NCBI GenBank assembly: GCA_030531745.1
Contig: JAUNMU010000002.1
Location: forward strand, 1-43,949
Length of the DNA: 43,949 bases
Origin: Synergistes sp.
GTDB lineage: Bacteria; Synergistota; Synergistia; Synergistales; Synergistaceae
Reading direction: 5' to 3'
The position numbers and the translations under genes are program-made. Below the pieces are notes generated by a model. That model did not search any database and was not told the DNA's origin. It worked only from the letters and a program-made list of their open reading frames with translations. Shown here piece after piece: positions 1 through 43,949 of the stretch. Within the stretch, counting starts at the first letter, position 1. Every line of letters begins with the position of its first letter.

Positions 1-22
1 CTCCAACGTATGGATATACGCC

Positions 23-76
23 TGATGAACAAACTAAGTTCCGCTACGCAAATCAAAGATTTGCTGCGTCACTTAT
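23..76 (+). repeat. B1 hairpin module (GATGAACAAACTAAG ... CTTA) sitting at a position that is a single T in copy R2
   Basis: Starts with the same 16-mer TGATGAACAAACTAAG as 118-133. Closing stem is TAAGT 35-39 / ACTTA 71-75. Inner stem is GCAAATC 48-54 / GATTTGC 58-64. Confidence 0.6.
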
Positions 77-117
77 CCGCCCCAGTCGTGGACTGCCTGT
101 TTAGCATCCGGCACATC

Positions 118-178
118 TGATGAACAAACTAAGCGACTCACACAAATCGGAAAATCGCCGATTTGGTTCGCTGCTTAT
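118..178 (+). repeat. B2 hairpin module (GATGAACAAACTAAG ... CTTA), second insert-like unit
   Basis: Closing stem TAAGC 130-134 / GCTTA 173-177. Inner 8-bp stem CAAATCGG 143-150 / CCGATTTG 158-165 with loop AAAATCG. A homologous unit lies at 43886-43943 on the minus strand. Confidence 0.6.
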
Positions 179-311
179 AATCAGCGGAAGCCGCTTTTGC
201 GTTTATCTGCCAAAAACAAATTAAACAGCGTTTTCTCAATTATACCATTTTAGGCCGTTATTATCCGTATATTTTTAAGCAATTCAATATATACCTGTAA
301 ATGGAAATTTT

Positions 312-320
312 TGTTATAAT
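312..320 (+). promoter_or_regulatory. Extended -10 promoter element (TGtTATAAT) upstream of rapZ
   Basis: TGTTATAAT lies 33 nt upstream of the rapZ ATG. There is no convincing -35 hexamer. Confidence 0.4.
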
Positions 321-352
321 ACTTGTGTAGTTCGTGGAGGTGAGTGTAGGGT

Positions 353-1228
353 ATGTCGAATACGGAGATACGGTGCGTAGTTATAACAGGACTGTCTGGG
401 AGTGGAAAAACTTCCGCGCTCAATGTCTTGGAGGATATGGGGTATTATGCGGCGAACAACGTGCCTATGGAGATCGTGCCTGAACTCATCACGCTTCTCA
501 TAAATAAGACGCCTTCATGTGATAAGATAGCGGTGGTAGGAAATTTGCATGAAGAAAGCGATGTTAGTGTATTTTTCAGTGTGTTGGATAAAATAAAATC
601 AAACGGCATAAAACTAAAAACGCTTTTTATGAATGCCTCTGATGAAACTATTCTGAGACGCTACGAAACATCAAGACGCAGACATTATTTTGCAAATGGT
701 GTTGCGCTGCTTCAAGCGATAGCTGCAGAGCGCAATGTGCTGAAAGTAGTGAAAGAAAAGTGCGATGCAGAGATAATGACCGATGATATAAGTTTAACCG
801 GTTTAAGGGCTCTTATTACGGAAAATCTGATGCTTGAAGAAACAACGTCGTCAATAGTTGTCAGTTCTTTCGGATTTAAGTATGGTATACCGTCCGATGC
901 GGATTATGTCTTTGATGTGCGTTTTCTTCCGAATCCGAATTATATACCCGAACTGCACGACCTTTCGGGCAAGGATCTTCCCGTTCGTACTTACATGGAG
1001 TCTTTTTCTTCTCTCAGTGATTTCCGTGACAGGCTCATACCTCTTGTGAAGTATATATCATCTGTTTATTCGCAGACGGCTAAGAGACAGATGCACATAG
1101 CGTTCGGCTGTACGGGCGGAAGGCATCGTTCTGTCATGCTTGCGGAAACGGTAGGCAAGATGCTCGCCAAATCGGGCTGCTCCGTTTCAATTATACACAG
1201 AGATATAGACAGGGGAGTATCCGATTGA
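353..1228 (+). CDS. rapZ: RNase adapter protein RapZ (YvcJ-type P-loop NTPase)
   Basis: N-terminal P-loop GLSGSGKTS and C-terminal GCTGGRHRSV motif. SD GGAGGTGA lies upstream. It is followed by yvcK and whiA, the conserved arrangement. Confidence 0.92.
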   Translation: MSNTEIRCVVITGLSGSGKTSALNVLEDMGYYAANNVPMEIVPELITLLINKTPSCDKIAVVGNLHEESDVSVFFSVLDKIKSNGIKLKTLFMNASDETILRRYETSRRRHYFANGVALLQAIAAERNVLKVVKEKCDAEIMTDDISLTGLRALITENLMLEETTSSIVVSSFGFKYGIPSDADYVFDVRFLPNPNYIPELHDLSGKDLPVRTYMESFSSLSDFRDRLIPLVKYISSVYSQTAKRQMHIAFGCTGGRHRSVMLAETVGKMLAKSGCSVSIIHRDIDRGVSD

Positions 1229-2349
1229 CTGCGGTGAATATTTTCCTGTCTATCATAGTGTTTGCTTTAGGAGTCTCCGTCTCTGCGTTTGTGCTGAAAC
1301 GTTCCGGCAGAACTCGTTCCGCAAAGAGACACGGCAAGATGGTGGCCAATGCGGTGAAACATAGGCTTTCCGAAGGTTCAAAGATCGTTGCCATAGGCGG
1401 CGGCACGGGGCTTTCCACGTTGCTCCGCGGTCTTAAGTGTTTTACAAAAAATATAACAGCGGTTGTCGCTGTAACAGACGAGGGCGGAAGCTCAGGACGG
1501 CTGCGTGAAGAGTGGGGGATGTTGCCCCCTGGTGATATACGCAACTGCATTGTTGCTCTTGCCGAAAACGACAGCTCTCTGAGCAGTCTCCTTAACTATC
1601 GCTTTGATAAGGGGCAGCTTTGCGGACACAGTTTGGGAAATATAATTATTCTTGCAGCTACGGAACTTATGGGGGATTTTCAGCGTGCTGTTGAGGAGCT
1701 CAACAATATGCTTGCGATAAGAGGAAGGGTATTGCCTGTTACGACGGAAAATGTAAAGCTTTACGGAGAAACGAACGATGGCAAGTCAATATCGGGAGAA
1801 CTGGAGATTTCCGAAAACGGCAGAATTCTTTCTAAATTATGGATTGAACCGGCAGACGCATCTACGCTTCCGGCGGTGTGCAAGAGCATTGACGATGCCG
1901 ATGTTATAACCATGGGGCCAGGAAGCCTCTTTACAAGTGTTATGCCAAATCTGTTGCTGAAAGATATTGCAAAAAAATTAAATGAAACTAAGATTCCAAT
2001 CATTTATATTGCAAACCTTATGACACAACCGAAAGAGACCGAAGGAATGAACATAGTTGCCCATGTAGATTGGCTTGCGGGAGTTATCGGTCGTGTTCCG
2101 GATTATATTTTTGTAAATCAGTCAAAAATACCTGATGATCTTGTCAAAAGGTATAGCAAAATAGGCGCAGAGCCGTTATACTTGTCTGCGAGGGAGGAGA
2201 AATATCTGACCTCATTGGGAACAAAGATTGTGTTTGGAGATTTTTGTGAAATTAAGGATAACAAATATTTAAGGCATGATGCGTTGCATATTTCAGAGAA
2301 GATAATTGAAATAGCAAAGGGAAACAGCAGACTTTATGAGAAGTCTTAA
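1225..2349 (+). CDS. yvcK: YvcK / gluconeogenesis factor (CofD-like, UPF0052)
   Basis: GGGTGLSTLLRGLK motif. TTG start overlaps the rapZ stop, with AGGGGAG 7 nt upstream. N-terminal TM segment present. Confidence 0.9.
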   Translation: MTAVNIFLSIIVFALGVSVSAFVLKRSGRTRSAKRHGKMVANAVKHRLSEGSKIVAIGGGTGLSTLLRGLKCFTKNITAVVAVTDEGGSSGRLREEWGMLPPGDIRNCIVALAENDSSLSSLLNYRFDKGQLCGHSLGNIIILAATELMGDFQRAVEELNNMLAIRGRVLPVTTENVKLYGETNDGKSISGELEISENGRILSKLWIEPADASTLPAVCKSIDDADVITMGPGSLFTSVMPNLLLKDIAKKLNETKIPIIYIANLMTQPKETEGMNIVAHVDWLAGVIGRVPDYIFVNQSKIPDDLVKRYSKIGAEPLYLSAREEKYLTSLGTKIVFGDFCEIKDNKYLRHDALHISEKIIEIAKGNSRLYEKS

Positions 2350-3247
2350 TCATACGATTTGGGATGAATGGAGTGCCGCCGGAGTTGACGAAGAACTTGT
2401 CATTGATGAGATATCCGGAATAATAAGCGGTTTAGCGTACAGTCCGGTCGGCGATAGGTGTGTGTTTACTTTGCCGCGCCTTTTTGTCCTTAGGCGTTTG
2501 ATGCGCATTTGGGGAAGATACAAATGGAAAGACGGGGACGGCGCAATAAGGGTCATCGGCTCGTATCAGAGAGGCGGAGTTAAGTTTTCAATAAGCAGGG
2601 ATGATGTAAGCGAGATTTTTCAAAGAACAGATACAATGGCCAAACGCACAAGGAATTGGAATTGGGTTCGCGGTATATTTGGCAGCTGCGGGGCTATATA
2701 TCTTCCAAAGACAGGTTACTATTTAGCGGTGCGTTTGCCGATTACCGGAAGACATGTTGATCGTGTTCAGGCAATTTTGAGATCATGTGGTTTTGCTTTG
2801 GGGGTAAGAAAGAAAATATCATTAAAGGAGCTGATATTAAGAGATCAACAGGATATAGTCACGTTTCTGTCCAGAATAGGTCTTGTTAATACAGCACTGG
2901 AACTTGAAAATATGGCGATCTACCGTTCAATGCGCAATCATGCAAATAAGCTTGTAAACTGCGACACGGCGAATATTAACAAGACGTTGCAGGCTGCAAA
3001 AGAACAGATGGCCATTATCAGGCAAATTGAAGACAGCGGTATCATAGACGAGCTTTCCGAGCCGCTTGCGGAACTGGTGGCGGCAAGAAAGAAAAATCCG
3101 AGCATTACATTGAAAGAGTTAGGTCAGACTTTACCAAAGCCTGTAAGTAAAAGTACAGTTGAATACAGATGGCGTAAGCTTGAAACTATACTAAGTGACA
3201 AATTAAAGGGAGATGAAGCCAATGTACTTAGGAAAAGCAGATGTTAA
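2336..3247 (+). CDS. whiA: DNA-binding protein WhiA
   Basis: Third gene of the rapZ-yvcK-whiA trio. LAGLIDADG-like RGIFGSCGAIYLPKTGYYL segment and a C-terminal HTH-like tail (ITLKELGQTLPKPVSKSTVEYRWRKL). Confidence 0.85.
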   Translation: MRSLNHTIWDEWSAAGVDEELVIDEISGIISGLAYSPVGDRCVFTLPRLFVLRRLMRIWGRYKWKDGDGAIRVIGSYQRGGVKFSISRDDVSEIFQRTDTMAKRTRNWNWVRGIFGSCGAIYLPKTGYYLAVRLPITGRHVDRVQAILRSCGFALGVRKKISLKELILRDQQDIVTFLSRIGLVNTALELENMAIYRSMRNHANKLVNCDTANINKTLQAAKEQMAIIRQIEDSGIIDELSEPLAELVAARKKNPSITLKELGQTLPKPVSKSTVEYRWRKLETILSDKLKGDEANVLRKSRC

Positions 3248-5195
3248 TACCTATGACAAAGGTGCCGGAAGGGAGTTTCTTGTATCCAACGGGCGCGGGA
3301 GTTACGGTTTTTCAACGGTCATAGGCGCGAACTCAAGAAGAGAGCACGGGCTTCTTGTTGTAAGGCATGAGAATGAACTTGAACATTCTGTGCTTGTAAG
3401 CAAAATTGAAGAAGTGATCTATCACAGCAGTAAGAAATATCAGCTGTCAACAAACCGTTACAAGGATATTGTATATCCTGACGGTTACAGATATTTACAG
3501 GAATATCAGGGAAATCCTTTCCCAAGTATGCTCTTTGTAATTCACAGCATCCTTCTTAAAAAGTCAATATTTATGCCTCAGGGAGCAGGATGTACGATAG
3601 TGAAGTACGAGTTGCTTGCGGCACCGGAGAAGATACGTCTTGATATCCGTCCGCTCTTCGCGCACAGACATGTCAGTGTAGTGTGTGCGGAAACAGGCAA
3701 AGATAATTTTTCTGTCTCCTCCGCATCGGAAAGAACGATAGGTATAACGGGAAGAGGAATGTCAAGTGCGTGCGAAGCAACGGCGGGCAACTGGTCACTA
3801 AAGCCTCTGTGGTTTGAAAACATTGTCTATGAGCAGGATGACTGTGCCGAAACACCGGAAAGCGACAGCCTTTGGTCACCCGGTATCCTTTCGGTTGATA
3901 TGTCGGAGGGGGAGTCTGTTTATGTCATTCTCTCCGAAAAACCGTCTTCTTTTACAACAGGACAGCTTGCTGAAATGGAGGCAGAGGCTGCCAAGAGATT
4001 TGAGGATATTCTTGAAAAAGCCAACATTTCTGCACTTAACAGCGCAGAACAGGATATGATAGCATCATCGTATCATCTTGTTGATACCGGCACCGAAGAT
4101 AAATCTCCCATATACACAGGATATCCTTCGGTATCCGCCAAGGCGCGAGAAACATTTATCTCGCTTCCCGGACTTTTACTTGCGACCGGAAGAGAGGAAA
4201 CTGCGGAAAAGACGCTTTTGTATTGGTGCAATGTAGCTGAACACAATGATTGGGTCGTTCCAGGTGCCTTATTCCCCGATGGTAAATCTCAGTTCGGATA
4301 TGCGGACGATGGACTTTGGTTGGTATATGCGATTGATAAATACCTTACGCACTGCAATGATACAAAAAATAAGGAAAAATTTGCTGACTGCGCACTGCAT
4401 ATCGTAAACAAGTATCTTTCGGGCATTGAACAGCTTGATCTTGTCTGCGATGCAAATATGCTTCTGCGCGTGACAGGTGATAATTCATGCCGTTATTGGA
4501 TGGGGGAGTCCGTTGACGGAGAAGTCGTTGTTAAACGCAAAGGCTATCTCGTTGATGTGAACTCTCTTTGGTACAACGCACTCAAAGTCGCGGCCAAATA
4601 TGTGCTTGAATGCGGCAAATCGGAAGATGCGGATAAACTTGAGGCTGCGGCTGCAAAGTGTTCAAAGAGTTTTGGTGAAGTATTCCGCAGCTTTGATATG
4701 AGAGGGCTTTACGATTTTGTAGATCCAAACACATTCAAAGGTGAGTATGCTATAAGACCCAACCAGATACTTGCCGCTGCCCTTCCGTTCAGTCCATTGT
4801 CTGACGAAGATGCTCAGTCGGTCGTTCGCCTCTGCTGGAACGAACTTTACACAACGTACGGATTGCGTACGCTTGACCCGCACCACGAGAAATTCAAAGG
4901 GCGTTCGGAGGGAAGGCCGGATCAGCGCATTAAGGCACGCTACCGCGGAATGGCATGGACGTGGCTTCTCGGCCAGTTCATAACGGCATACATAAAATAT
5001 AATCCCACACGCAAGGATATTGGCTGGACGTTTATACGCCCATTCAACTCACATCTGCGCCACGGCTGCCTCGGAGGCATAGCGGAACTCTTTGACGGCA
5101 TTATGCCCTATCGCCCCAACGGAGATGTGCTCAGCGCCATATCTCTTGGAGAAATGCTGCGCGTCCTTTATGAGGACTTGGAGGAAGAGTGCTAA
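3222..5195 (+). CDS. Glycogen debranching enzyme family protein (amylo-alpha-1,6-glucosidase, GDE_N_bis + GDE_C)
   Basis: N-terminal SNGRGSYGFSTVIGANSRREHGLLV matches the bacterial/archaeal GDE N-domain, followed by a long (alpha/alpha)6-type C-domain. The ATG at 3213 abuts the SD AAAGGGAG, so ATG 3222 (9-nt spacing) is preferred. Confidence 0.82.
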   Translation: MYLGKADVNTYDKGAGREFLVSNGRGSYGFSTVIGANSRREHGLLVVRHENELEHSVLVSKIEEVIYHSSKKYQLSTNRYKDIVYPDGYRYLQEYQGNPFPSMLFVIHSILLKKSIFMPQGAGCTIVKYELLAAPEKIRLDIRPLFAHRHVSVVCAETGKDNFSVSSASERTIGITGRGMSSACEATAGNWSLKPLWFENIVYEQDDCAETPESDSLWSPGILSVDMSEGESVYVILSEKPSSFTTGQLAEMEAEAAKRFEDILEKANISALNSAEQDMIASSYHLVDTGTEDKSPIYTGYPSVSAKARETFISLPGLLLATGREETAEKTLLYWCNVAEHNDWVVPGALFPDGKSQFGYADDGLWLVYAIDKYLTHCNDTKNKEKFADCALHIVNKYLSGIEQLDLVCDANMLLRVTGDNSCRYWMGESVDGEVVVKRKGYLVDVNSLWYNALKVAAKYVLECGKSEDADKLEAAAAKCSKSFGEVFRSFDMRGLYDFVDPNTFKGEYAIRPNQILAAALPFSPLSDEDAQSVVRLCWNELYTTYGLRTLDPHHEKFKGRSEGRPDQRIKARYRGMAWTWLLGQFITAYIKYNPTRKDIGWTFIRPFNSHLRHGCLGGIAELFDGIMPYRPNGDVLSAISLGEMLRVLYEDLEEEC

Positions 5196-5207
5196 TTTCT
5201 TGTAGGA

Positions 5208-5236
5208 TTGACATATAACGGAACAAGTATAAGAAT
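5208..5236 (+). promoter_or_regulatory. Candidate sigma70-type promoter for gap-pgk (TTGACA-N16/17-TAAGAAT)
   Basis: TTGACA at 5208-5213 and TAAGAAT at 5230-5236, about 70 nt upstream of the gap ATG. Confidence 0.4.
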
Positions 5237-5304
5237 AAGGGGGGAAATGTAAAATTTTTCTCTCTTACAATAATTGTTATATAAATACTGAGGAGGAACT
5301 TTTT

Positions 5305-6324
5305 ATGGCAAAGTACAAAGTTGCAATCAACGGTTTTGGACGTATCGGACGCCTTTCGCTTCGTGCGTTTTTCACGAACGGCAAGGATAATGAGTTTGAG
5401 ATAGTGGCTATCAATGATTTGACACCGCCGTCATCACTGGCTTATCTGCTCAAATACGACTCTGTTTTCCGCCGTTTCCCCGGAACGGTTGAAGTTGACG
5501 GAGATTTCCTTGTCGTAAACGGTCAGCGCATAAAGGCACTTGCAGAACCCGATCCCGCGAAGTTGCCGTGGAAAGAAATGGGCGTTGATATCGTTATAGA
5601 ATCAACAGGCCGTTACACAGATGCCAACGCAGCAAAGGCACATATTGAAGCAGGAGCAAAGAAAGTTATCATTTCTGCGCCTGCAAAGAATCATGATGTA
5701 ACGATCGTAATGGGTGTCAACGAAAATACTTACGATCCGAAGAAGCACCACATCATTTCAAACGCTTCATGCACAACGAACTGCCTTGCACCGGTGTGCA
5801 AAGTTTTGCAGGACAAGTTCGGAATCGTTGAAGGGCTTATGAACACAGTTCACGCTTACACCAACGACCAGAAAACACTTGATTTTCCGCACAAAAATCT
5901 TTCACGCGGAAGAGCAGCGGCACTTTCAATCATTCCGACAACAACAGGTGCAGCAAAGGCAATTTCCGAAGTCATGCCGGAACTGAAAGGCAAACTGAAC
6001 GGTTTTGCGCTTCGTATTCCAACGCCTGATGTTTCCGTAGTTGACCTTACAGTCGTCCTTGAAAAAGGCACAACGGTTGACGAACTTAACGCAGCAATGA
6101 AAGAAGCCGCCGAAAACGAGCTTAAGGGCGTCCTTGAGTATGAGCCTGAAGATCTCGTATCAATGGATTTTGTCGGCAATACAAACTCATCAATATTCGC
6201 ACCGAGACACACTCTTGCGATGGGTGACAAAATGTTCAAAATCCTCTCATGGTACGACAATGAGTGCGGATACAGCAACAGAGTTATAGATCTTGCAAAC
6301 TTTATACTGAAAAAAGGTCTGTAG
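5305..6324 (+). CDS. gap: Glyceraldehyde-3-phosphate dehydrogenase, type I
   Basis: NGFGRIGR dinucleotide fold and catalytic [21 protein letters not shown] lies upstream. Confidence 0.97.
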
Positions 6325-6327
6325 CTT

Positions 6328-7524
6328 ATGCAGCTTAAAACATTTTCGCAGTCGGATATTGCCGGCAAAAAAGTAGTTGTAAGGGTTGACTTCAATGTTC
6401 CTCTTGCAGACGGTAAAGTCAGCGATGACACACGTATCTTGGCGCATATCCCCACGATCACCGCGTTGCTTGACGCAGGTGCCGATGTGGCGTTGATTTC
6501 ACACCTCGGCAGACCGAAGGGCGAACGCAATATGAAGTATTCGCTTGAGCCGGTTTGCGCAAGGCTTGCGGAACTGACGGGATGGAACGTGAAATTTGTG
6601 CCGGATTGCATCGGCAAAAAAGTCTCGGATGCGGTTACGGAATGGAAGAAAGGCGAAATTCTTCTTTTGGAAAATCTTCGCTTTTATTCTGAGGAAGAAA
6701 AAAACGACAAAGAATTTGCAAAAGCCCTTGCGGCTGACTTTGATGCCTTTGTGATGGATGCTTTCAGTGCGTCACACAGAGCACACGCCTCAACACGCGC
6801 AATTACCGAATTCGTGCCGTCATATTCCGGTATGCTCATTAACCGCGAAATAACCATGCTTTCAGCAGCAAGAGATAATCCGAAAAAGCCCTTTGTGCTT
6901 ATCCTTGGCGGAGCGAAAGTCTCTGACAAGATTGCCGTAGTTGAAAATATGCTTCGCAAGGTTGACACGATTCTTGTAGGCGGCGGCATGGCATTTACCT
7001 TCCTGAAGGCACTCGGTAAAGAGATAGGCAAATCTCTCTGTGAGGAACAGAAACTTGACTTTGCAGCGAAAATGCTTGAAGAAGCAAAACAATTCGGAGT
7101 CAAGATCGTGCTTCCGATAGATGTTGTTACCGCAAAAGAGTTTAAGGCTGATTCTCCGGCACACGTTACAGACGCAGATTCAATACCTGCGGATGAGATG
7201 GGGTTGGACATTGGTCCTGCAACGGCAAAACTCTTCGCGGATGAAATTGCAGCCGCTAAGACCGTTATATGGAATGGTCCCATGGGTGTTTTTGAAATGC
7301 CTTCATTTGCAAAAGGCACTGAGGAAGTTGCAAAAGCACTCGTTTCGGCGACACGCAACGGTACATTGACAGTTGTCGGTGGGGGAGACTCAGCTGCCGC
7401 AATAACACAATTCAATATGCAGGATAAAGTTTCGCATGTATCAACGGGAGGCGGGGCAAGCCTTGAGTTCTTTGAGGGCAAGTTGCTTCCGGGAATTGAA
7501 CCGTTCATATTAGGGAACCACTGA
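6328..7524 (+). CDS. pgk: Phosphoglycerate kinase
   Basis: RVDFNVP N-terminal motif and full-length PGK-like sequence. Starts 3 nt after gap. Confidence 0.97.
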   Translation: MQLKTFSQSDIAGKKVVVRVDFNVPLADGKVSDDTRILAHIPTITALLDAGADVALISHLGRPKGERNMKYSLEPVCARLAELTGWNVKFVPDCIGKKVSDAVTEWKKGEILLLENLRFYSEEEKNDKEFAKALAADFDAFVMDAFSASHRAHASTRAITEFVPSYSGMLINREITMLSAARDNPKKPFVLILGGAKVSDKIAVVENMLRKVDTILVGGGMAFTFLKALGKEIGKSLCEEQKLDFAAKMLEEAKQFGVKIVLPIDVVTAKEFKADSPAHVTDADSIPADEMGLDIGPATAKLFADEIAAAKTVIWNGPMGVFEMPSFAKGTEEVAKALVSATRNGTLTVVGGGDSAAAITQFNMQDKVSHVSTGGGASLEFFEGKLLPGIEPFILGNH

Positions 7525-7530
7525 TTATAT

Positions 7531-7685
7531 GCACCATCCGCGTCACAGTCAGACCGCGCCTGTGGCTCCAACGTATTGATATACGCCTCCGCCCCAGTCG
7601 CGGTCTGACTGTTTAGCGGCTGGCACATCTAATCAGCGGAAGCCGCTACCGTGTTTATCTGCCCCAAACGCATTAGTCAGCGTTC
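7531..7685 (+). repeat. Composite intergenic repeat, copy R2: about 90-nt imperfect palindrome (7534-7623) followed by the D module (7631-7685)
   Basis: 14-bp perfect stem 7545-7558 / 7599-7612 (ACAGTCAGACCGCG / CGCGGTCTGACTGT), extended imperfectly on both sides. The 24-nt loop 7567-7590 equals module A of R1. Confidence 0.85.
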
Positions 7686-7711
7686 CTTAGATTAACCTGA
7701 ATAAATATCTT

Positions 7712-7742
7712 AGGGCGGAATAATTTCCGCCCTTATATTTTA
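7712..7742 (+). terminator. Rho-independent terminator after pgk
   Basis: AGGGCGGAA / TTCCGCCCT 9-bp stem with TAAT loop, followed by TATATTTTA. Confidence 0.75.
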
Positions 7743-7747
7743 TGACC

Positions 7748-29297: not shown

Positions 29298-29405
29298 TAT
29301 CCAAGGAAAACGTCAGATGATCTCACTTCTGCCGTCTACAATAAAGCCACGACAACATTATCATTTAACAAGAGTGCGTATATATAACCGATAGAAAAAT
29401 ACATT

Positions 29406-29448
29406 AAGGCTAAAATGCGATCGCATCGCATTTTAGCCTTAATTTTTT
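29406..29448 (+). terminator. Rho-independent terminator after rluB
   Basis: Perfect 16-bp stem AAGGCTAAAATGCGAT / ATCGCATTTTAGCCTT with a 3-nt loop, then AATTTTTT. Confidence 0.85.
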
Positions 29449-33728: not shown

Positions 33729-33756
33729 TCTCAATGATTATTGCTCCCTTAATAAA

Positions 33757-33812
33757 ACCGCCGTCTTCCTGCGAGCGGCGTAATCGCCGCACAGGAAGAC
33801 GGCGGTTTTTTT
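33757..33812 (+). terminator. Rho-independent terminator of the five-gene cassette
   Basis: 15-bp stem ACCGCCGTCTTCCTG / CAGGAAGACGGCGGT followed by TTTTTTT. Confidence 0.85.
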
Positions 33813-33858: not shown

Positions 33859-33955
33859 GATTTTAGCTTCTTGCCTATAATCAGCGCAAAACAGCTATAG
33901 TGTTTATCTGCCAAAAACGAATTAATCAGCGTGTCCTTATCTATGCCGTATCAAT
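33859..33955 (+). repeat. Composite intergenic repeat, copy R3 (degenerate end of B plus D module 33879-33936 plus a partial extra D tail)
   Basis: TAATCAGCGCAAAACAGCTATAGTGTTTATCTGCCAAAAACGAATTAATCAGCGTGTCC aligns with the D modules of R1, R2 and R5. Confidence 0.75.
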
Positions 33956-34036: not shown

Positions 34037-35620
34037 GTGGGGAAATATTTTAATCCGAGTAATCAGAGCTTTACAGATGATTCTACAGCTCCGATATACG
34101 TTGATAAAACGGGGCTGCTTGAACATCTGAATAGATGCATACGCACACCGAACAGGTGCGTAGCCGTCAGCCACGCAAGACGCTTCGGCAAATCGCAGGC
34201 CGCGGGAATGTTAGACGCATATTACAGCAAAGGCTGTAATTCGCACGAACTCTTTTCAAGGTTTGAGATCGCAAAAACGGCGGATTTTGAAAAATACCTG
34301 AATAAATATAATGTCATACACATTGATATGGCGCAAATGTGCGATAACTGCAACGGAGATTTCATGGAAAAACTCTTCAAAACACTTACCGCTGAATTTG
34401 CCGCATCGGAACTCGGTGACAAACTTGACTGTTCCAAACCTGTTGAACTTGTGATAAGTGACATATACACGCTGACCGATTTACCCTTTGTCATAATCAT
34501 AGATGAATGGGACTGCGTAGTGCGTAATTACGCAAGTGATCAAAGACTTGTACATGAGTATATGCAGTTTCTGCACGCTCTCTTCAAAAGTGAATTGGCA
34601 AAACAGTTTCTTGCCCTCGGCTATATAACAGGCATACTCCCGATAAAGAAATTTGATGACGAATCAACACTGAATAATTTCAGAGAATATACGATGATAA
34701 ATTCAAGAGGGCTGACAAAGTACTTCGGTTTCACCGAAAACGAAGTGGAAGAACTGTGCATAAAATATAACGCGGATATTGTAGGTGTGAAAGAATGGTA
34801 CGATGGCTATGACATAAATGGCATATCAATGTATAATCCGAACTCGGTTTGTCAGGCTATGGAGTTTCATGAACTCACATCTTATTGGACGAATACTTCC
34901 TCTTTCAGCACCATAAACAGATTTGTTACGCTGAACTTTGAAGGGCTGAAAGATGACGTTATAAATATGCTCAAGGGTGAGAGAGTTGCTGTAAATGTCC
35001 GCACGTTTAGGAACGATTTGTCCGAGATAAACTCAAAGGACGATGCTTTGACTGCACTCATACATTTGGGTTATCTTGCATACGATACTGAGATGGAAGA
35101 GGCATACATACCGAACTTTGAAGTTGCCCTTGCATATCATTCCGCACTGCCGTCAAGCGGCTGGAAGGACGTTGCCGACTCAATATCGCGTTGTACCGAT
35201 CTGTTGAATGCAACGATAAGAAAAGACGAAGAAAAAGTTGCGGAGCTGATAGATAAGGCTCACACTGCGTACACTTCGCATATCAAATACAATGATGAAA
35301 ATTCTCTGTCATGTGTTGTGTCAATGGCGTACTTCACAGCTCCCGCGTATTATACGATAGTCCGTGAATTTGCATCCGGCAGAGGCTTTGCGGATCTTGC
35401 TTTCATACCGAAGAAAATGTCATCAAACAGACCGCCTATGATAATAGAACTTAAATGGAACAAGTCTGCCGACAGCGCGATAAAACAAGTTAAAGAAAAA
35501 AGGTATCACGGAGCACTCTCCGGATTTTGTAATGAAATTCTCCTTGTAGGTATAAACTACGACAAAGACGACAAGGATAAAAAACATACGTGCAAAATAG
35601 AAAGAGTGAGGAACGTGTAA
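34037..35620 (+). CDS. AAA-ATPase-like (PF09820-type) protein with C-terminal PD-(D/E)XK nuclease-like domain
   Basis: N-terminus FTDDSTAPIYVDKTGLLEHL...RFGKSQAAGMLDAYY and IIDEWD are typical of the predicted AAA-ATPase family. C-terminal GRGFADLAFIP...IIELKWN is a PD-(D/E)XK-like motif. GTG start with AGAGGGAGG SD. Confidence 0.75.
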   Translation: MGKYFNPSNQSFTDDSTAPIYVDKTGLLEHLNRCIRTPNRCVAVSHARRFGKSQAAGMLDAYYSKGCNSHELFSRFEIAKTADFEKYLNKYNVIHIDMAQMCDNCNGDFMEKLFKTLTAEFAASELGDKLDCSKPVELVISDIYTLTDLPFVIIIDEWDCVVRNYASDQRLVHEYMQFLHALFKSELAKQFLALGYITGILPIKKFDDESTLNNFREYTMINSRGLTKYFGFTENEVEELCIKYNADIVGVKEWYDGYDINGISMYNPNSVCQAMEFHELTSYWTNTSSFSTINRFVTLNFEGLKDDVINMLKGERVAVNVRTFRNDLSEINSKDDALTALIHLGYLAYDTEMEEAYIPNFEVALAYHSALPSSGWKDVADSISRCTDLLNATIRKDEEKVAELIDKAHTAYTSHIKYNDENSLSCVVSMAYFTAPAYYTIVREFASGRGFADLAFIPKKMSSNRPPMIIELKWNKSADSAIKQVKEKRYHGALSGFCNEILLVGINYDKDDKDKKHTCKIERVRNV

Positions 35621-35635
35621 ATGCTGATGTTTTGA

Positions 35636-35671
35636 GCGTTTATCACTTATAACGTATCAATCAGTGTGTCC
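35636..35671 (+). repeat. Composite intergenic repeat, copy R4 (D-module tail only)
   Basis: GCGTTTATCACTTATAACGTATCAATCAGTGTGTCC aligns with GTTTATCTGCCAAAAACGAATTAATCAGCGTGTCC of R3. Confidence 0.6.
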
Positions 35672-35911
35672 TCAATATTTCATTTTTGTCAGCAGAGGTG
35701 CGAACAATGTGTCGTTGGTGCGGCTGAGTTTCAATCCGCGTACGATGTCGCGCAGGTCTCCCCGTCTGATGTTCTTTGATATTTTCATCGTGATAAGCTG
35801 GCCTGTGCCGCACTTGCCGCAGGTCCAGACAAAGTTTTCAATCATTCCTGAGCTTGGTGTGCCCGCAAGGACTTTCAACTCTCCGCATTTTTGGCATGCA
35901 ACTACATACAT
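35672..35911 (-). CDS. Small zinc-ribbon protein (two CxxC knuckles), hypothetical
   Basis: CQKCG ... CGKCG. SD AAGGAAG lies 7 nt upstream. Starts 12 nt after the DUF3084 gene stop. Confidence 0.6.
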   Translation of the reverse strand: MYVVACQKCGELKVLAGTPSSGMIENFVWTCGKCGTGQLITMKISKNIRRGDLRDIVRGLKLSRTNDTLFAPLLTKMKY

Positions 35912-35923
35912 TCAAATACTTCC

Positions 35924-37126
35924 TTATCTCAATCTTATATTCACCGCAAGGGGACCTTCCGTATAAACATCTTTTGCGGCGAAAATTTCAATGGTAGTTT
36001 CTTTGCTGCTCTTTGATATGTGTTCAATGGCATCCATAAGTTCGTTTGAATCAAGCGAGCCTACATCACCGGTGATAGGATCCCTTAAAACGCCGTCCGA
36101 TGCCGCATTGCCATTCATTGATTTGAGAGCCATATAAATGACCTGTTCAACATCTTGCTGCTTTGTGTTTGGGGCAAATTTATGGCTGAAAAGAACGTCG
36201 CCGGATTTGTAGACAAGCTTTGACTCGCGTGCATCAAGCCGTACTTGAATTGAAGAGTCTCCGTCCACAAGGTTTCCGAGTGCAGAAAGGCGCAGAAGCC
36301 AACGACCGTTTGTATTGATGACTTTGTTCTTTGCCTCTGTAAGGGATGCGGACGAAATCTGCGGCAGCGGAAGCTCCGAAGGTTTTTTGCCGAATCTGTA
36401 AGCAAGCATATCCCTTGCCCATGTACGCATTCTTGCGATGTGGTCGTTCATTTGACGTTCTGTTACGGGTGAGTACTCTGCTATGGATTGTGCCAAAATT
36501 TCCTCGGAAAAGGCGGCAATTCTTCCTGTGCGGAGCTTTTGAATGCCTTGTTTGAGAGTTTCGGATTCTTTTCTGAGTTTATTCACGGATGCCTCAAGTT
36601 TTTTGCTCTCCGCGGTCAATTTTTGGTTTTCAGATGTGAGTTTTTCCTGTTCCGCCTCTGTCTTTGCACGTTCGGCTCTCATATTTGCCAAATCGGAACG
36701 CGCTCTTTGAAGATTATCCATTTCTTCTTTTAATTTTGTGCTGACGCTGTCAAGTTCTCTTTCTCTATCGGATAGATCTCCGCGGCTCTGAAGGAGATCA
36801 ACTTCCATTTTGTACATAGTGTCCTGATTGGTACGCAACTGATCGCGCATAGTGAGAAGCTGGCGCTGGACGAATTGCATTGAAAAAAGCGCCGTCCTCA
36901 CCTGTTCGGAAGCGAGGCTCAATCCTACCATTACGACTACTGCTATCCCAAGTCCCGTGAGGACAGATATGATTCGTGATGTGTACTTAGGACGCAGACC
37001 GAGAAGCGTTATGCGCTTCTTGCCAAGTTTCATCCCGACTACGTCGCCTATAAAGGAGACAAGAATACTCAACGCGATAAGAGCGCATATCAGCATCCAG
37101 TTGACTTCGTAAAGTAATTCGCTCAT
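35924..37126 (-). CDS. DUF3084 domain-containing membrane protein with long coiled coil
   Basis: N-terminal TM pair with the GDVVGMKLGKKRITLLGLRPKYTS motif typical of DUF3084. Coiled-coil segment of about 120 aa. ATG 37138 abuts the SD, so ATG 37126 is preferred. Confidence 0.7.
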   Translation of the reverse strand: MSELLYEVNWMLICALIALSILVSFIGDVVGMKLGKKRITLLGLRPKYTSRIISVLTGLGIAVVVMVGLSLASEQVRTALFSMQFVQRQLLTMRDQLRTNQDTMYKMEVDLLQSRGDLSDRERELDSVSTKLKEEMDNLQRARSDLANMRAERAKTEAEQEKLTSENQKLTAESKKLEASVNKLRKESETLKQGIQKLRTGRIAAFSEEILAQSIAEYSPVTERQMNDHIARMRTWARDMLAYRFGKKPSELPLPQISSASLTEAKNKVINTNGRWLLRLSALGNLVDGDSSIQVRLDARESKLVYKSGDVLFSHKFAPNTKQQDVEQVIYMALKSMNGNAASDGVLRDPITGDVGSLDSNELMDAIEHISKSSKETTIEIFAAKDVYTEGPLAVNIRLR

Positions 37127-37219
37127 CGTGCATATCATCTCCCTACAAGCACCAAAACACTATCGTGTATTATAACAGAAATTTTGTGTAAAATGAATTG
37201 CGGCGGTGAAGTTCATGCA

Positions 37220-37251
37220 AACAAAAAATCGGGAAGAAAACTCTTCCCGAT
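37220..37251 (-). terminator. Rho-independent terminator after the ABC permease gene
   Basis: On the minus strand ATCGGGAAG / CTTCCCGAT stem followed by TTTTTTG. Confidence 0.8.
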
Positions 37252-37256
37252 CACCG

Positions 37257-38495
37257 CTATTCATATTTGAGCGCGTCTATAGGATTCAAAAGAGACGCCT
37301 TGTAAGCGGGGTAATAGCCGAAGCCGATCCCGACCATTGCGGAGAATGCGAATGCAAGCATAATTGATGATATGTTAAATATCGGCGGCGAGGATGTAAA
37401 TGAAGAAAGTGAGGATGTAAACGAAGAAATCGTGTATCCTGCGACAACCCCGAGCAATATTCCGAATGCGCCGCCTATCATTGAGAGAACCACGGCCTCA
37501 ATAAGAAACTGCATTCTTATGTCTTTGGACGTTGCACCTACTGCCATTCTTATGCCTATTTCGCGTGTGCGCTCTGTTACCGATACAAGCATGATGTTCA
37601 TTATTCCTATGCCGCCGACTACGAGTGAAATGAGTGCTACCGAGCCGAGCAGCATTGACATTACCGCTGTGGTTTTGCGTCTGGCTTCAAGCATCTGTGT
37701 TACATTGCGCACTGCAAAGTCATCCGCATCGCCCTGCTTTATCTTGTGCCTTTCGCGCAGCAGAGTTTCTGTCTCGTGCTGAATATATTCAAGCGATTCC
37801 ATTGATATGCCTTTGATGTAAATGTTCCCTATACGTCCGGCTGTCGCCCAGCGAGATAGTCTCCTCTGAGCTGTGGTAAGAGGAACGAGGATAAAATCAT
37901 CATAGTCATTGCCCATTGCGGAGATGCCTCTGCGCTCAAAAATCCCCACGACTGTGAAGGGAATCTTGTTGATTCTTATGGATCTGCCTATAGGATTTTC
38001 TCCGGCAAAAAGTTTATCAACTATAGTATATCCAACTACTGCGACCTTTGCTCCCTGTCTTACATCGGTTGCTTCTATATCGCGCCCAATATCTACCGCT
38101 ATGTCCTGAACGTATGAATAACCTTCGGTGCTGCCAATGACGCTTGAGTTCCAGTTTGTGTTTTCGCAAACCACCGTTGCGGTAAGACTTATCATAGGCG
38201 CGATCGCTGCCACACCGGAGACATTATTTTCAATAGCACGTGCGTCATCATAAGTCAGATACTTTGTGATACCTGCTGTTGATCGTCCAGAACGATCGGG
38301 ATATACCGAGATAAAGTTGCTCCCAAACGAAGATATTTGATCGTCTATGCTCTTGCTTGCTCCGGCACCGATTGCGAAAGCAGCGATGACCGCCCCTACG
38401 CCTATGATTATCCCAAGCGTGGTAAGCATGGAGCGCGTTTTGTTCCTGCGCAGTGCGGTCACGGATGCCGTGAATACCTCAGACATTGCTATCAT
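37257..38495 (-). CDS. ABC transporter permease, MacB/FtsX type
   Basis: MacB_PCD-like periplasmic domain between TM1 and TM2. C-terminal FtsX domain (TREIGIRMAVGA). Confidence 0.9.
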   Translation of the reverse strand: MIAMSEVFTASVTALRRNKTRSMLTTLGIIIGVGAVIAAFAIGAGASKSIDDQISSFGSNFISVYPDRSGRSTAGITKYLTYDDARAIENNVSGVAAIAPMISLTATVVCENTNWNSSVIGSTEGYSYVQDIAVDIGRDIEATDVRQGAKVAVVGYTIVDKLFAGENPIGRSIRINKIPFTVVGIFERRGISAMGNDYDDFILVPLTTAQRRLSRWATAGRIGNIYIKGISMESLEYIQHETETLLRERHKIKQGDADDFAVRNVTQMLEARRKTTAVMSMLLGSVALISLVVGGIGIMNIMLVSVTERTREIGIRMAVGATSKDIRMQFLIEAVVLSMIGGAFGILLGVVAGYTISSFTSSLSSFTSSPPIFNISSIMLAFAFSAMVGIGFGYYPAYKASLLNPIDALKYE

Positions 38496-38497
38496 TG

Positions 38498-39196
38498 TTA
38501 TACACTCCTGCGGTTATTGTTTATTTCGTCTTTCGTGATCACTCCATCGCGAAAGTGAAGTATTCTTTTTGCATACAGTGCAACGTCAAGTTCGTGAGTA
38601 ACCAAAATTATCGTTATCCCTTCATCATTCAGGCGACAGAAGAGCGACATTATTTCATCGCTTGTCTTTGTGTCAAGGTTTCCTGTCGGTTCGTCTGCCA
38701 TAAGTATCGGGGCATGGTTCACTATGCCGCGTGCGATCGCAACACGCTGCTGCTGGCCTCCGGAAAGTTGTGTAGGTTCGTGGTACAGACGATCTTTCAG
38801 CCCCATAGCGATCAGGACCTCTTTTGCCTTAGCGTGCCTTTCGGCTTTCGGCACTCCCGCATACAGCAGAGGAAGTTCAACGTTTTCCATTGCGGTCGTC
38901 TTGGAAAGAAGGTTAAATCCCTGAAAAACAAATCCGATCATTTTATTTCGGATTTCCGCAAGCTGATCGGAAGCCATCTGCGAAACATCTTTGCCGTTCA
39001 GAAAATATTCTCCGCTCGTAGGATGATCAAGACAGCCCAAAATATTCATCGTAGTTGATTTACCGGATCCCGACGGTCCCATCATTGCGACAAACTCTCC
39101 GTCACCCACCGCAAGATCAACACCGTGAAGGATCTCTATGCTTTCATTTCCGAGATTGAAGCTTTTTCTTATGTTCTTAAGTTCAACAAGGTGCAT
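38498..39196 (-). CDS. ABC transporter ATP-binding protein, MacB/LolD type
   Basis: Walker A GPSGSGKST, signature LSGGQQQRVAIAR, Walker B ILMADEPT. Confidence 0.95.
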   Translation of the reverse strand: MHLVELKNIRKSFNLGNESIEILHGVDLAVGDGEFVAMMGPSGSGKSTTMNILGCLDHPTSGEYFLNGKDVSQMASDQLAEIRNKMIGFVFQGFNLLSKTTAMENVELPLLYAGVPKAERHAKAKEVLIAMGLKDRLYHEPTQLSGGQQQRVAIARGIVNHAPILMADEPTGNLDTKTSDEIMSLFCRLNDEGITIILVTHELDVALYAKRILHFRDGVITKDEINNNRRSV

Positions 39197-39197
39197 T

Positions 39198-40400
39198 TTA
39201 TCTACCGCCGTCTCTTGGTACGATAATTCCGGTTATTACCTGCTGACCTTCGTTAATTCCCGATATTATTTCCGTATTCTCTCCGTCCGTTATGCCCTTT
39301 TCAACTTCAACCCTTACAGGTTTTTTGTTTTTGCCAAGTGTATAAACCGCAGGCCCTAAAACTTCAGTAGCGGCGTCTTTCTTTTTCCCCTGATTGGCGG
39401 TCATTTGGTTGGGAAGTCCGTCTGACGGCTTAAAGCGGAATGCGCTGTTCGGAACGGTGAGAACATTGTCTTTGTGTTCCAGAAGAAGTGATACGTTTGC
39501 CGTCATGCCCGGAATCAATTTCTGATCCGGGTTGGCTACCTGCGCTACGACTACATACGTTACCACGTTATCCGATGCTTGAGGTGCAAGTCGTATCTGT
39601 GCGACTTTGCCCGCAAATTCCTCGTTAGGGTAGGCATCAACATTAAAAATAGCCCGCTGACCGTTATAGACACCCCCTATATCTGCTTCATCAACATTTA
39701 TTTCAACCTGCATGTGCGTTAAGTCTCTTGCTATTTTGGCGATTGAAGGCGTCTGATAGCTTGCGGCAACTGTCTGTCCCTCTTCAACATTTTTTGCGAT
39801 TACCGTGCCTTTTACCGGCGAATATATCCGTGTGTAGTTAAGGTTTATTTTTGTCTTCTGCAGTGTCGCCTGATATTGTTCAACCTTTGCCTGTGCCGCT
39901 GCAAGCTTCGCTTCCGCTATGTCGCGTGTGCTCTGATTTTTATCAAGTTCACTCTTTGCTACCAGGTCGTTTTTTATGAGCTGCTGTGTGCGCGAAAGAT
40001 CTTTTTCGGCAACGATAAGAGACGCCTTTGCGCTCAGCACATCGGCCTTTGCCGAGTCAACATTTGCCTGTGCAAGGTCAACTTCGGCTTCCTGTGTAGC
40101 GGAATCCATCAGCGCTATCAGCTGTCCCTGCTCCACTTCGCTGTTATAGTCAAAGAAAAGCTGCTTTATTCTGCCTGAGATCTGTGTACCTACATCAACA
40201 GTCTCAACGGGATTAAGTGTTCCCGTTGCCTGAATCGTTGAAACAAGGTCTCCGCGCACGACCGGACTTGTTCTGTAATTTATCTCCTGCTTACCGTCTC
40301 TTAAGTATGCGTAACCGCCGGCCGCTGCGACGCATACCACTAATACCCAAAATGCCGGTTTGAATAATTTGCTTCCCCTGCCAAGAAATTTAATTCCCAT
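39198..40400 (-). CDS. Efflux periplasmic adaptor subunit (MacA/HlyD family)
   Basis: TM anchor, coiled-coil hairpin, lipoyl and beta-barrel segments. ATG 40400 is preceded by GGAGG at 8 nt; the ORF-track start at 40427 would overlap the tolC-like gene. Confidence 0.87.
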   Translation of the reverse strand: MGIKFLGRGSKLFKPAFWVLVVCVAAAGGYAYLRDGKQEINYRTSPVVRGDLVSTIQATGTLNPVETVDVGTQISGRIKQLFFDYNSEVEQGQLIALMDSATQEAEVDLAQANVDSAKADVLSAKASLIVAEKDLSRTQQLIKNDLVAKSELDKNQSTRDIAEAKLAAAQAKVEQYQATLQKTKINLNYTRIYSPVKGTVIAKNVEEGQTVAASYQTPSIAKIARDLTHMQVEINVDEADIGGVYNGQRAIFNVDAYPNEEFAGKVAQIRLAPQASDNVVTYVVVAQVANPDQKLIPGMTANVSLLLEHKDNVLTVPNSAFRFKPSDGLPNQMTANQGKKKDAATEVLGPAVYTLGKNKKPVRVEVEKGITDGENTEIISGINEGQQVITGIIVPRDGGR

Positions 40401-41664
40401 AGTCCAATCCTCCCATAGCTTTTTCAAGGTTAAGCTGTGCTGTCTTGCATATATGAAGTGAAAGCACTTTGTTAGTTGATGCAGATGCGTAGCTTTCTAC
40501 AGCATCGGAGATCTCAAGGCTGCTTCCAACACCTGCTGCATAGCGCCCTTCCGCTAAATCCAAAGTTGCCTTTGCGGAACGTTCTGCCTCCAGTGACGAA
40601 AGGTATGCCTCCTTTGCCTCTCTGAGAGCTTGCCAATATTGGCGTATTTCAAGCGAAACACTGTTTTTCAAAGACTGCATCTCAAACTCTGCCACTTTCA
40701 GCTTCGCTTCGGCCTCCTGCGTCCTGCTCTTTGTCAAACCTCCGTCGGATATGGGCAGGGTAAGTGAAAGTCCTGCGTTCCAGTCCCCTCCGTTGTCAAA
40801 AAACGACACGCCTCCGGAGCCGTAGCCTGCTGTGGCAGAAAGGGAAGGCGAAAGTCCCTTTTTCTGGAGTGTAAGGTTTGTCTTGGCATATTCAACACGC
40901 TTTGCCTTTGCTGCGATCTCAGGTCTGTTTTGCATTGCTCTTTCAATGGCCTCGTCAACCGTGACTTCAAATTCTTTGAAATCAAGCATATCAACAACAC
41001 CGTCTATGTCGCGCAGCGGCTCGCCCATAAGGTTTGCAAGTTCTGCTTTACAATCTTCTTTGTCTGCTTGAGCCTTTACAATGGCAAGTTTTGATGCGGC
41101 TAAATCTGCCTCTGCCTTTGTGACTTCAATCTTTGCCTTTGTACCGGCATTGTAATACGATTTTGCCCAAGCAAGACGTTTTTTGTAGTTGTTAAGACGT
41201 GTTTTCGCTATTTCTTCATCTCTGACAGCTTTGTTGATTCCGTAATACGCGGTCCACACATCCTTAATGAGAGCCTGCCTTACTGAAAAAAGATCATAAG
41301 ATGCAGCTTCTGTTGAGAGGATCGCACCTTTAACCTTTGACTCGCGCCTGCCCCAATCGGAGATAGACTCCGTTAAGGCAACTCGTTCCGTAAAGCTGCC
41401 GTTATGGTTTTCGCTTGAAAGTCCGCTGCCGGCACGTGTATAACCCGCGCTTGCCGAGATCTGAGGACGGGCTGTTGAGGCTGCCTGCTGAATTGTTGCC
41501 TTCTGTGCCGTAATTGTTTCTGCTGCGCTCTTCACATCGGGATTGTTCATAATGGCTGCCGAAAGACATTCTTCTATCGTCAGCGTTGCCCCAAAGCATG
41601 AAGCAGCCGATGATAAAGTTATCACTGCGGCGGAGATAAAAACGCCTATAGCCGATCTGCTCAT
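40390..41664 (-). CDS. TolC family outer-membrane efflux protein
   Basis: Signal peptide. Two OEP repeats with a long coiled-coil pattern. 424 aa. Confidence 0.85.
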   Translation of the reverse strand: MSRSAIGVFISAAVITLSSAASCFGATLTIEECLSAAIMNNPDVKSAAETITAQKATIQQAASTARPQISASAGYTRAGSGLSSENHNGSFTERVALTESISDWGRRESKVKGAILSTEAASYDLFSVRQALIKDVWTAYYGINKAVRDEEIAKTRLNNYKKRLAWAKSYYNAGTKAKIEVTKAEADLAASKLAIVKAQADKEDCKAELANLMGEPLRDIDGVVDMLDFKEFEVTVDEAIERAMQNRPEIAAKAKRVEYAKTNLTLQKKGLSPSLSATAGYGSGGVSFFDNGGDWNAGLSLTLPISDGGLTKSRTQEAEAKLKVAEFEMQSLKNSVSLEIRQYWQALREAKEAYLSSLEAERSAKATLDLAEGRYAAGVGSSLEISDAVESYASASTNKVLSLHICKTAQLNLEKAMGGLDYGN

Positions 41665-43109: not shown

Positions 43110-43798
43110 TTTGTGCCGTCCGAAATTTTGTAGCCAAAACCGTGAACAGTTCTTATATAACCGTTTTCGTGCTGTGGGTCGCTCAGTTTCTTGCGTATAT
43201 TTTTGATATAGCTGTCTATTGATCGTTCAAAACCGTCATATTCATATCCAAGTGCGTATGTTATAAGATCGTCTCGGCTCCATGTCTTTTCGGGCCGTGA
43301 TGCCAATTTTGACAAAATCATAAATTCATTGCGGGTCAAAGAGATCTCTTCACCGTTTTTTAATACCGTGAGGTTATCTGTGTCAATGGCAAGCGAATCG
43401 CCCACGTTTATTACATTGTTTTTCAGTGAATTTTGTGTCGGTTTGTTCCTGCGCAGATTTGCCCTGATTCTTGCCATCATAACACGCGGCGAAAACGGCT
43501 TTACAATGTAATCATCGGCTCCGGCATCAAGCCCCGCTATAATGTCATCTTCGCCGCTCTTTGCCGTGACCATTAAGATAGGTGTTGCGGAATTTTTGCG
43601 TATTTCTCGGCACACGTCAACTCCGGACATCTCGGGAAGCATCAGATCAAGCAAAACAAGGTCATATTTGTCCTGATAAAATTTTGCAAGCCCCTCTGTA
43701 CCGGAAGCCGCAATATCCGCACTATGACCATCGCGTTCAATATACGCTCGTTCTACCTCTGCTATGGCTCTTTCGTCTTCAACAATAAGTATCTTCAT
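43106..43798 (-). CDS. OmpR-family response regulator
   Basis: Receiver domain (ILIVEDE, DLVLLDLMLP, K at ...IVKPF) and winged-helix output (RTVHGFGYK). Overlaps the kinase start (ATGA). Confidence 0.94.
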   Translation of the reverse strand: MKILIVEDERAIAEVERAYIERDGHSADIAASGTEGLAKFYQDKYDLVLLDLMLPEMSGVDVCREIRKNSATPILMVTAKSGEDDIIAGLDAGADDYIVKPFSPRVMMARIRANLRRNKPTQNSLKNNVINVGDSLAIDTDNLTVLKNGEEISLTRNEFMILSKLASRPEKTWSRDDLITYALGYEYDGFERSIDSYIKNIRKKLSDPQHENGYIRTVHGFGYKISDGTK

Positions 43799-43829
43799 AA
43801 CGATAACAACACCTCACCTTCAATTTATT

Positions 43830-43949
43830 GACACACTGATTAATTCGTTTTTTGCAAATAAACGCAAAAGCTGCTTCCGCTGATTATAAGCAGAGAACCG
43901 ATTTGCCGATTTTGCAAATCGTGTGACTCGCTTAGTTTGTTCACCGGAT
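43830..43949 (-). repeat. Composite intergenic repeat, copy R5 (minus orientation; B module 43886-43943, D module 43830-43885; cut by window end)
   Basis: The reverse complement aligns base-for-base with 121-235 except for the swapped hairpin stem and a few substitutions. The D module ends 31 nt upstream of the response-regulator ATG. Confidence 0.85.

Follow-up and report, generated by a model that had tools for sequence, protein, structure and literature searches.

Genomic context and the repeat copies

The window, i.e. the whole stretch of DNA analysed, is an entire contig of 43,949 nt with a G+C content of 45%. Its gene order runs rapZ-cofD-whiA-GDE-gap-pgk-tpiA onward through housekeeping operons, and contigs of related bacteria display the same rapZ-cofD-whiA-GDE-gap-pgk-tpiA synteny. 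The PGK encoded in the window is 77-79% identical to those of Cloacibacillus, 'Candidatus Caccocola' and unnamed Synergistaceae. Short repeats are scattered along the contig, and an nhmmer profile of their most conserved part, module D, revealed no copies in the fetched loci of the relatives.

The 30-nt core of the repeat, GTTTATYTGCNNNAAACNNATTANNCAGYG, has four exact matches in the window, at 201-230(+), 7653-7682(+), 33902-33931(+) and 43834-43863(-), while none is expected by chance and none occurred in 100 dinucleotide-preserving shuffles. A fifth copy is a diverged fragment at about 35621-35682, detected by nhmmer (E 2.6e-10) and in agreement with sensitive blastn. Beyond the core, positions 1-23 match 7566-7588 with 96% identity (module A), 76-121 match 7588-7633 with 85% identity (module C), and 115-231 match the reverse complement of 43833-43949 over 117 nt with 85% identity (modules B and D). 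The copies in the window are as follows.

1-235, plus strand: copy 1, cut by the contig start; module A 1-23, B1 24-75, C 76-118, B2 119-177, D 178-235
7514-7686, plus strand: copy 2, 173 nt, the sole complete copy in the window; left terminal inverted repeat (TIR), C', loop A, C, D, right TIR
33868-33936, plus strand: copy 3; only about 10 nt of eroded B at the left, then core D, whose right end is intact and reads GGACACGCTGATTA in reverse complement
35630-35671, plus strand: copy 4, diverged; holds the right half of D, whose right end is intact
43830-43949, minus strand: copy 5, cut by the contig end; B2 and D, 85% identical to copy 1 (115-231)

A multi-copy modular repeat, as proposed in the preliminary description, is thus real, with four exact cores, a diverged fifth fragment and recurring modules A, B and C. 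The copies differ by 15-25% from one another. Copy 3 is located 3' of a terminator at 33751-33812, copy 4 begins directly past the stop codon of an ATPase gene, and the right end of copy 5 is followed after 31 nt by the response-regulator ATG (43798). Copies 3 and 4 may be eroded or truncated remnants of longer elements. Two architectures are present, one without module B (copy 2 and the translated copies P0241 and P0242 described below) and one with it (copies 1 and 5 and the translated copy P0249). Both have been propagated, B2 being found at the same position in copies 1 and 5.

Several particulars of the preliminary description needed correction. Copy 2 is present where it had been placed, yet it starts at 7514 and not at 7531. 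The 8-mer AATCAGCG, said to bound module D on both sides, does so exactly only in copy 3 and is one base off in the other copies. The statement that copies always lie between operons does not hold, as copy 2 extends over the final 11 nt of the pgk reading frame. The observation that both window ends lie inside copies is borne out, the window being a whole contig that ends in copies 1 and 5. Neither a transposase nor a RAYT or integrase gene was seen in gene calls and Pfam scans, which covered most of the window though not every ORF, in line with the earlier reading.

Insertion of copy 2 at the end of pgk

The junctions of copy 2 with the host sequence were analysed by comparison with the pgk ends of the relatives. 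Copy 2 (7514-7686) is flanked by a direct duplication of TTAG, at 7510-7513 and 7687-7690, and the features on which its delimitation rests are listed below.

7510-7513, plus strand: left TTAG duplication, inside the pgk codons TTA G..
7514-7527, plus strand: left TIR, 14 nt, GGAACCACTGATTA, which matches the reverse-complemented family right end GGACACRCTGATTA
7673-7686, plus strand: right TIR of copy 2, TAGTCAGCGTTCC, one base shorter than those of copies 3, 4 and 5
7687-7695, plus strand: right TTAG followed by ATTAA, a relic of the original pgk end TTA GAT TAA (Leu-Asp-stop)
7712-7745, plus strand: host pgk terminator, GGGCGGAATAATTTCCGCCC followed by a T-rich tail, outside the element and displaced downstream

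When 7513 is joined to 7691, the sequence reads CCG TTC ATA TTA GAT TAA, and pgk then encodes a protein of 396 aa ending in KLLPGIEPFILD. The present PGK of the window has 398 aa and the ending ..PFILGNH; excision of 7514-7690 restores 396 aa and ..PFILD*. PGKs of the relatives are likewise 396 aa long (397 in one listed match) and end in ..PYVLD* or ..PYVVE*, as in the relative locus L006 with ..GIEPYVLD*. In the relatives the element is absent between pgk and its terminator, which lies at most about 27 nt past the pgk stop codon. The homologous terminator of L006, GGGCGGATAATATCCGCCC, is found about 27 nt after the stop, and the window terminator GGGCGGAATAATTTCCGCCC is 190 nt further on than in the relatives. 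The empty site is a reconstruction and not a strain-level polymorphism, the relatives being only 77-79% identical in PGK.

Judged from its sequence, copy 2 is evidently a complete insertion with an empty site that can be reconstructed. TIRs, a 4-bp target duplication and an empty site together are the hallmark of MITEs that a DDE transposase mobilises. As incidental effects, the insertion would have replaced the PGK C-terminus ..ILD by ..ILGNH and added a 120-nt hairpin to the pgk 3' UTR, upstream of the terminator.

Ends of the element and target site

The TIR of the basic element is 14 nt long, GGAMMCRCTGATTA. At 11-12 of its 14 positions the left TIR agrees with the reverse-complemented right ends, which read GGACACGCTGATTA in copy 3 and GGACACACTGATTR in copies 4 and 5. 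Only seven of the 87,870 14-mers in the window reach 11 of 14 matches to the TIR, and five of these seven are copy ends. A third, internal TIR-like site, TAATCAGCGG, opens the tail D, which is closed by the right TIR.

The right flanks of copies 1 to 5 are TCAA, TTAG, TTAT, TCAA and AATA, of which four conform to T-N-A. IS5 duplicates a 4-bp 5'-YTAR-3' target (PMC5009759), and the TTAG of copy 2 fits this target in the one case at hand. The target-site duplication (TSD) rests on this single example, copy 2 being the sole complete copy seen as DNA. Two further complete copies, P0241 and P0242, are seen as protein only, and their flanking codons cannot encode an identical duplication of 3-4 nt at these same boundaries; either their flanks have changed or the TSD is not general. 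The left flanks are TTAG in copy 2, and YAAR and NGAY as deduced from the codons of P0241 and P0242.

Internal anatomy and folding

The basic element, as seen in copy 2, encodes nothing. Its larger part forms one hairpin.

7518-7639, plus strand: long hairpin with 49-nt arms (7518-7566 and 7591-7639) that are 80% complementary; its loop is module A, 24 nt

The predicted folding energy of copy 2 is -41.8 kcal/mol as DNA (z -7.1) and -75.2 kcal/mol as RNA (z -8.0). Modules A/C and B fold with z-scores of -3.5 to -8, so the description of the repeat as hairpin-rich stands for these modules. It fails for core D, whose fold by itself does not surpass that of shuffled sequence (z-scores of -0.5, +0.07 and +0.3 in three of the copies, -2.3 in copy 2). 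The tail D, 57 nt long, is unstructured; the most conserved part of the repeat is therefore an unstructured, TIR-bounded end and not a hairpin.

Module B as an accessory unit

Module B is 52-60 nt long and consists of GATGAACAAACTAAG, an AAATCG/CGATTT hairpin and GCTTAT. B1 (52 nt) is placed exactly between A and C in copy 1, and B2 (about 59 nt) exactly between C and D in copies 1 and 5. At the corresponding insertion points of B1 and B2, copy 2 reads CGCCT|CCGCC and CACATCT|AATCAG. Altogether module B occupies three sites, after CGCCT, after CACATCT and within another B, and none of them displays a duplication of more than 1 nt. The hairpins of B2 in the two copies are as follows.

143-165, plus strand: B2 hairpin of copy 1; CAAATCGG, loop AAAATCG, CCGATTTG
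43899-43921: B2 hairpin of copy 5 in the same register; CGATTTGC, loop AAAATCG, GCAAATCG

Of the 117 positions shared by copies 1 and 5, 18 differ, and eight of these 18 constitute four both-side changes in the B2 stem. Four of its eight base pairs have thus been changed on both sides, with an identical AAAATCG loop. These compensatory changes point to pressure at the single-strand level, for which a plain double-strand DDE model has no need.

Each B is built of AAATCG/CGATTT units in differing orientations. Module B could be a nested hairpin-dependent mini-element, or could have arisen by recombination among the AAATCG units. The more specific proposal, that B is a separate nested mini-element moved or copied as a single-stranded hairpin, is considered unlikely; if true, a DDE-type MITE would itself be host to a hairpin-dependent mobile unit that ranks among the smallest known.

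Copies beyond the window

Further copies were sought at the protein level, using six-frame translations of the copies and then a peptide profile against 1.84 billion representative proteins. Translated copies of the element are contained in three proteins, encoded on other contigs that all belong to a single NCBI 'Synergistes sp.' MAG. P0241 (MDO4988454.1) is an ornithine cyclodeaminase with the element at the 3' end of its gene, and its last 70 aa begin with TTDYMHHPRHSQATPVAPTYGYTPPPQSGPDCLAAGTSNQRKPL. P0242 (MDO4987423.1) carries 58 element residues between its ThiD and TPK (thiamine pyrophosphokinase) domains. Both have the element layout of copy 2, and the 58 residues are the same in the two proteins. 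P0249 (MDO4987892.1), a 'partial' ORF that runs off its contig end, reads C, B and D with a further B nested in B. If the window is part of this MAG, as we infer, the known copies number at least eight.

P0242 is annotated as a 536-aa 'bifunctional' ThiD and reads as ThiD, the 58 element residues, ERLK and then MPRC.. (TPK). It probably represents two genes bridged by an in-frame MITE, and the fusion may be either an annotation artefact or a real product of the element.

Diverged relatives of the repeat were found as small ORFs on short ENA contigs (P0246, P0250 and P0247). The hairpin part and the AATCAGCG-type ends are common to the family, and the interior of D differs in these three. P0246 and P0250 diverge directly past the predicted right end, indicating different flanks. 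A further match, P0248, is an unrelated tandem-repeat protein and was discarded as false. The view that the repeat is a dispersed multi-copy family is thus strengthened by the three translated copies on other contigs of the MAG and by the diverged relatives on ENA contigs.

Independent Logan contigs of SRR24915802 match the window without a difference, one over 188-7538 and another over 34171-43903. The first of these breaks inside copies at both ends (188 and 7538) and the second at one end (43903). As evidence for a repeat these breaks are weak, since Logan contigs also break at the copy-free positions 13756, 29146 and 34171, the last inside the ATPase gene. The suggestion that assemblies break at copies agrees with both ends of the window, the contig end at MDO4987892.1 and the Logan breaks.

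Searches outside this group gave no named family, as had been anticipated. PLSDB plasmids contained no blastn match to copy 1 or copy 2, and scans of viral contigs for the core and for the right end were likewise negative. Rfam returned no match at gathering thresholds and nothing meaningful at E <= 1, so that no Rfam RNA family applies; the sub-threshold hits were MIR9666, a generic hairpin (28.5 bits vs a threshold of 88), and MicX (18.9 bits vs 75), which is located downstream of the element. A core-pattern scan of GTDB genomes and JGI metagenomes matched only within ORFs with unrelated flanks. Such matches in L003 and L005 (1419-1448; termite-gut Treponema MAG) and in L004 (1403-1430; an unrelated metagenome contig) were accordingly attributed to chance. 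A limited full-text literature search yielded no report of a MITE family in Synergistota. The family is previously undescribed, and the kind of element is ordinary.

Host signals around the copies

About 75 nt downstream of copy 1, at about 308-330, is a rapZ promoter motif, TTTGTTATAAT, that is also conserved in the relatives. This motif and the pgk terminator, both conserved despite the 77-79% identity of PGK, anchor the boundaries of the insertions. No sigma-70 promoter consensus was found in or at D. D was rejected as a promoter on this ground and on that of the conserved rapZ promoter outside copy 1, and as a terminator because only copies 1 and 5 have the small hairpin followed by a T-run. 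Since the host promoter and terminator are outside the copies and D contains no promoter, the element is best seen as a passenger. Its effects on the host, on the PGK C-terminus, the pgk 3' UTR hairpin and the extended or fused ORFs elsewhere, would be incidental.

Copy 5 faces an operon (37257-43798, minus strand) for a response regulator, a histidine kinase, an outer-membrane factor (OEP), an RND/MFP adaptor, an ABC ATPase and a MacB/FtsX permease. As copy 5 is the sole upstream sequence in the contig, the promoter of this operon must be in or beyond the element.

Nature of the element and alternative explanations

The repeats are probably a non-autonomous transposable element, a MITE with a basic form of about 173 nt, of an uncultured, gut-type Synergistaceae bacterium. 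The element is smaller than about 500 bp and carries no transposase gene, and it has TIRs, an empty site and dispersed copies, as is characteristic of MITEs. The TIR sites would be bound by a DDE transposase from a full-length IS located elsewhere in the genome, and this enzyme would move the element in trans. The best guess from the sequence is an IS5-like enzyme, because the 4-bp TTAG fits YTAR and four of the five right flanks are T-N-A. Scans of the window did not find a matching full-length IS or transposase. A high copy number would explain the fragmentation of assemblies at the copies. Against the MITE reading, two of the five copies retain the right end without the left part, a pattern also seen with one-ended mechanisms.

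The compensated hairpins raise the question of a mobile repeat that depends on single-stranded hairpins, either REP/REPIN-like and moved by a RAYT, or PATE-like and moved by an IS200/IS605-type Y1 transposase. RAYT and Y1 transposases recognise hairpins in single-stranded DNA and make no target duplication. Such an origin would agree with the very stable hairpins of the element, with the B2 stem kept through four both-side changes around an identical loop, with the three internal sites of module B lacking a duplication of more than 1 nt, and with P0241 and P0242, in which no obvious TSD is seen at the codon level. Copy 2, however, has a 4-bp duplication and 14-nt TIRs, and Y1-type elements have neither; the left flanks TTAG, YAAR and NGAY share no conserved tetranucleotide, no GTAG-type REP head is recognisable, and the window showed no gene for a Y1 or RAYT enzyme. 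On this balance a single-strand mechanism for the whole element is quite improbable. We give still lower probability to a host cis-regulatory element of several operons, such as a promoter/operator array, leader RNA or terminator/stabiliser, conserved for its function. All four full D cores are oriented to the downstream gene at 31-121 nt from its start, TAATCAGCG-like sites occur two or three times per copy, a weak hairpin resembling a terminator is found in the D of copies 1 and 5, and copy 5 leaves no space for another promoter of the response-regulator gene. The orientation bias, however, comes from only four copies, copies 2 and 3 do not conserve the small hairpin of D, and the fold of D is not significant. 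D also lacks a promoter consensus, the element has no Rfam match, and the conserved host promoter and terminator are outside the copies. The element is moreover missing from the same intergenic regions of syntenic relatives, one copy interrupts a coding sequence, and the flanking genes are functionally unrelated.

An artefact of assembly or binning, through chimeric joins or duplicated contig ends, might be suspected in a MAG with two of five copies at contig ends. It has next to no probability, as copies 2, 3 and 4 are internal and lie in uniquely assembled sequence, the independent SRR24915802 contigs are identical to the window over the two segments given above, the copies are 15-25% different from each other, and further copies occur on other contigs and in other samples.

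Comparison with known elements

DDE-derived bacterial MITEs are the closest known kind, and in modular build the closest are the BOX elements of pneumococcus. Like MITEs of the DDE/IS5 group, the present element is small (173 nt) and non-coding, with TIRs and strong fold-back, and the 4-bp duplication TTAG fits the 5'-YTAR-3' of IS5 (PMC5009759). It shares with DDE MITEs its multi-copy occurrence in or at the edge of intergenic DNA and the ability to extend or fuse reading frames. Unlike them, it has an extra internal TIR-like site and an unstructured 57-nt tail on one side only, its family carries accessory B modules, and there is no known parent IS for the GGAMMCRCTGATTA ends.

BOX elements of Streptococcus pneumoniae are composed of boxA, boxB repeated n times and boxC (Croucher et al. 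2011, PMC3049150). The likeness is one of build and not of direct sequence comparison, a sequence relation not being expected: both are modular, with an internal module of about 45-60 nt in variable number and extensive secondary structure (PMC3049150). Restriction to one lineage, co-transcription with neighbours, the capacity to create reading frames and a character seen as parasitic and not functional are also common to both (PMC3049150). In contrast to BOX, the B modules here are dispersed or nested and not in tandem, the complete copy has a clear TIR and TSD, and the host phylum is Synergistota.

Correia elements of Neisseria and RUP of S. pneumoniae resemble the present family as MITEs of 100-160 nt with TIRs, found in intergenic regions and 3' UTRs, which form mRNA hairpins and are divided into subfamilies by internal insertion or deletion. 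Correia and RUP duplicate TA and have longer TIRs, unlike the TTAG duplication and the 14-nt TIR observed here. REP/BIME/REPIN sequences are similar in their hairpin doublets of about 100-120 nt, mosaic modules and compensatory changes in stems. Assignment to the RAYT-mobilised REP/REPIN class was rejected: the hairpin pair is present, but copy 2 has TIRs and the TTAG TSD, and no Y1 or RAYT gene is seen in the window, while REPINs consist of imperfect palindromes in inverted pairs, lack the combination of TIR and TSD, and need a REP-flanked RAYT gene. PATEs derived from IS200/IS605 insert 3' of a fixed tetra- or pentanucleotide without duplication and have subterminal hairpins at both ends; the varying left flanks (TTAG, YAAR, NGAY) and the duplication in copy 2 speak against this class as well.

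The element would explain fragmentation of the Synergistaceae MAG, and shows where long reads or repeat-aware scaffolding would help. It also flags annotation artefacts and gene changes, namely the altered PGK C-terminus, the 70-aa tail of ornithine cyclodeaminase and the 'bifunctional' ThiD-TPK protein, which may be two genes bridged by an in-frame element.

Other features of the contig

An inverted repeat at 29398-29448, with 24-nt arms that are 92% complementary, a 3-nt loop and a subsequent T run, sits between a pseudouridine synthase gene and a DUF4143/AAA_14 ATPase gene and is probably a bidirectional terminator. The adjoining region of 29.5-35.9 kb looks like a variable or accessory island; it contains the DUF4143 ATPase, an HTH_3 regulator, several proteins with no Pfam match and a PDDEXK_9 ATPase.

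The gene of the latter (AAA-ATPase_like and PDDEXK_9; 34037-35620, plus strand) is flanked by the truncated copies 3 and 4. The 'Synergistes sp.' MAG has at least four paralogues of it that are more than 90% alike, two of them adjacent on one contig, and these are 64% identical to the window gene. The nearest homologue of the window protein (P0122) comes from other samples. The gene family looks multi-copy and possibly mobile.
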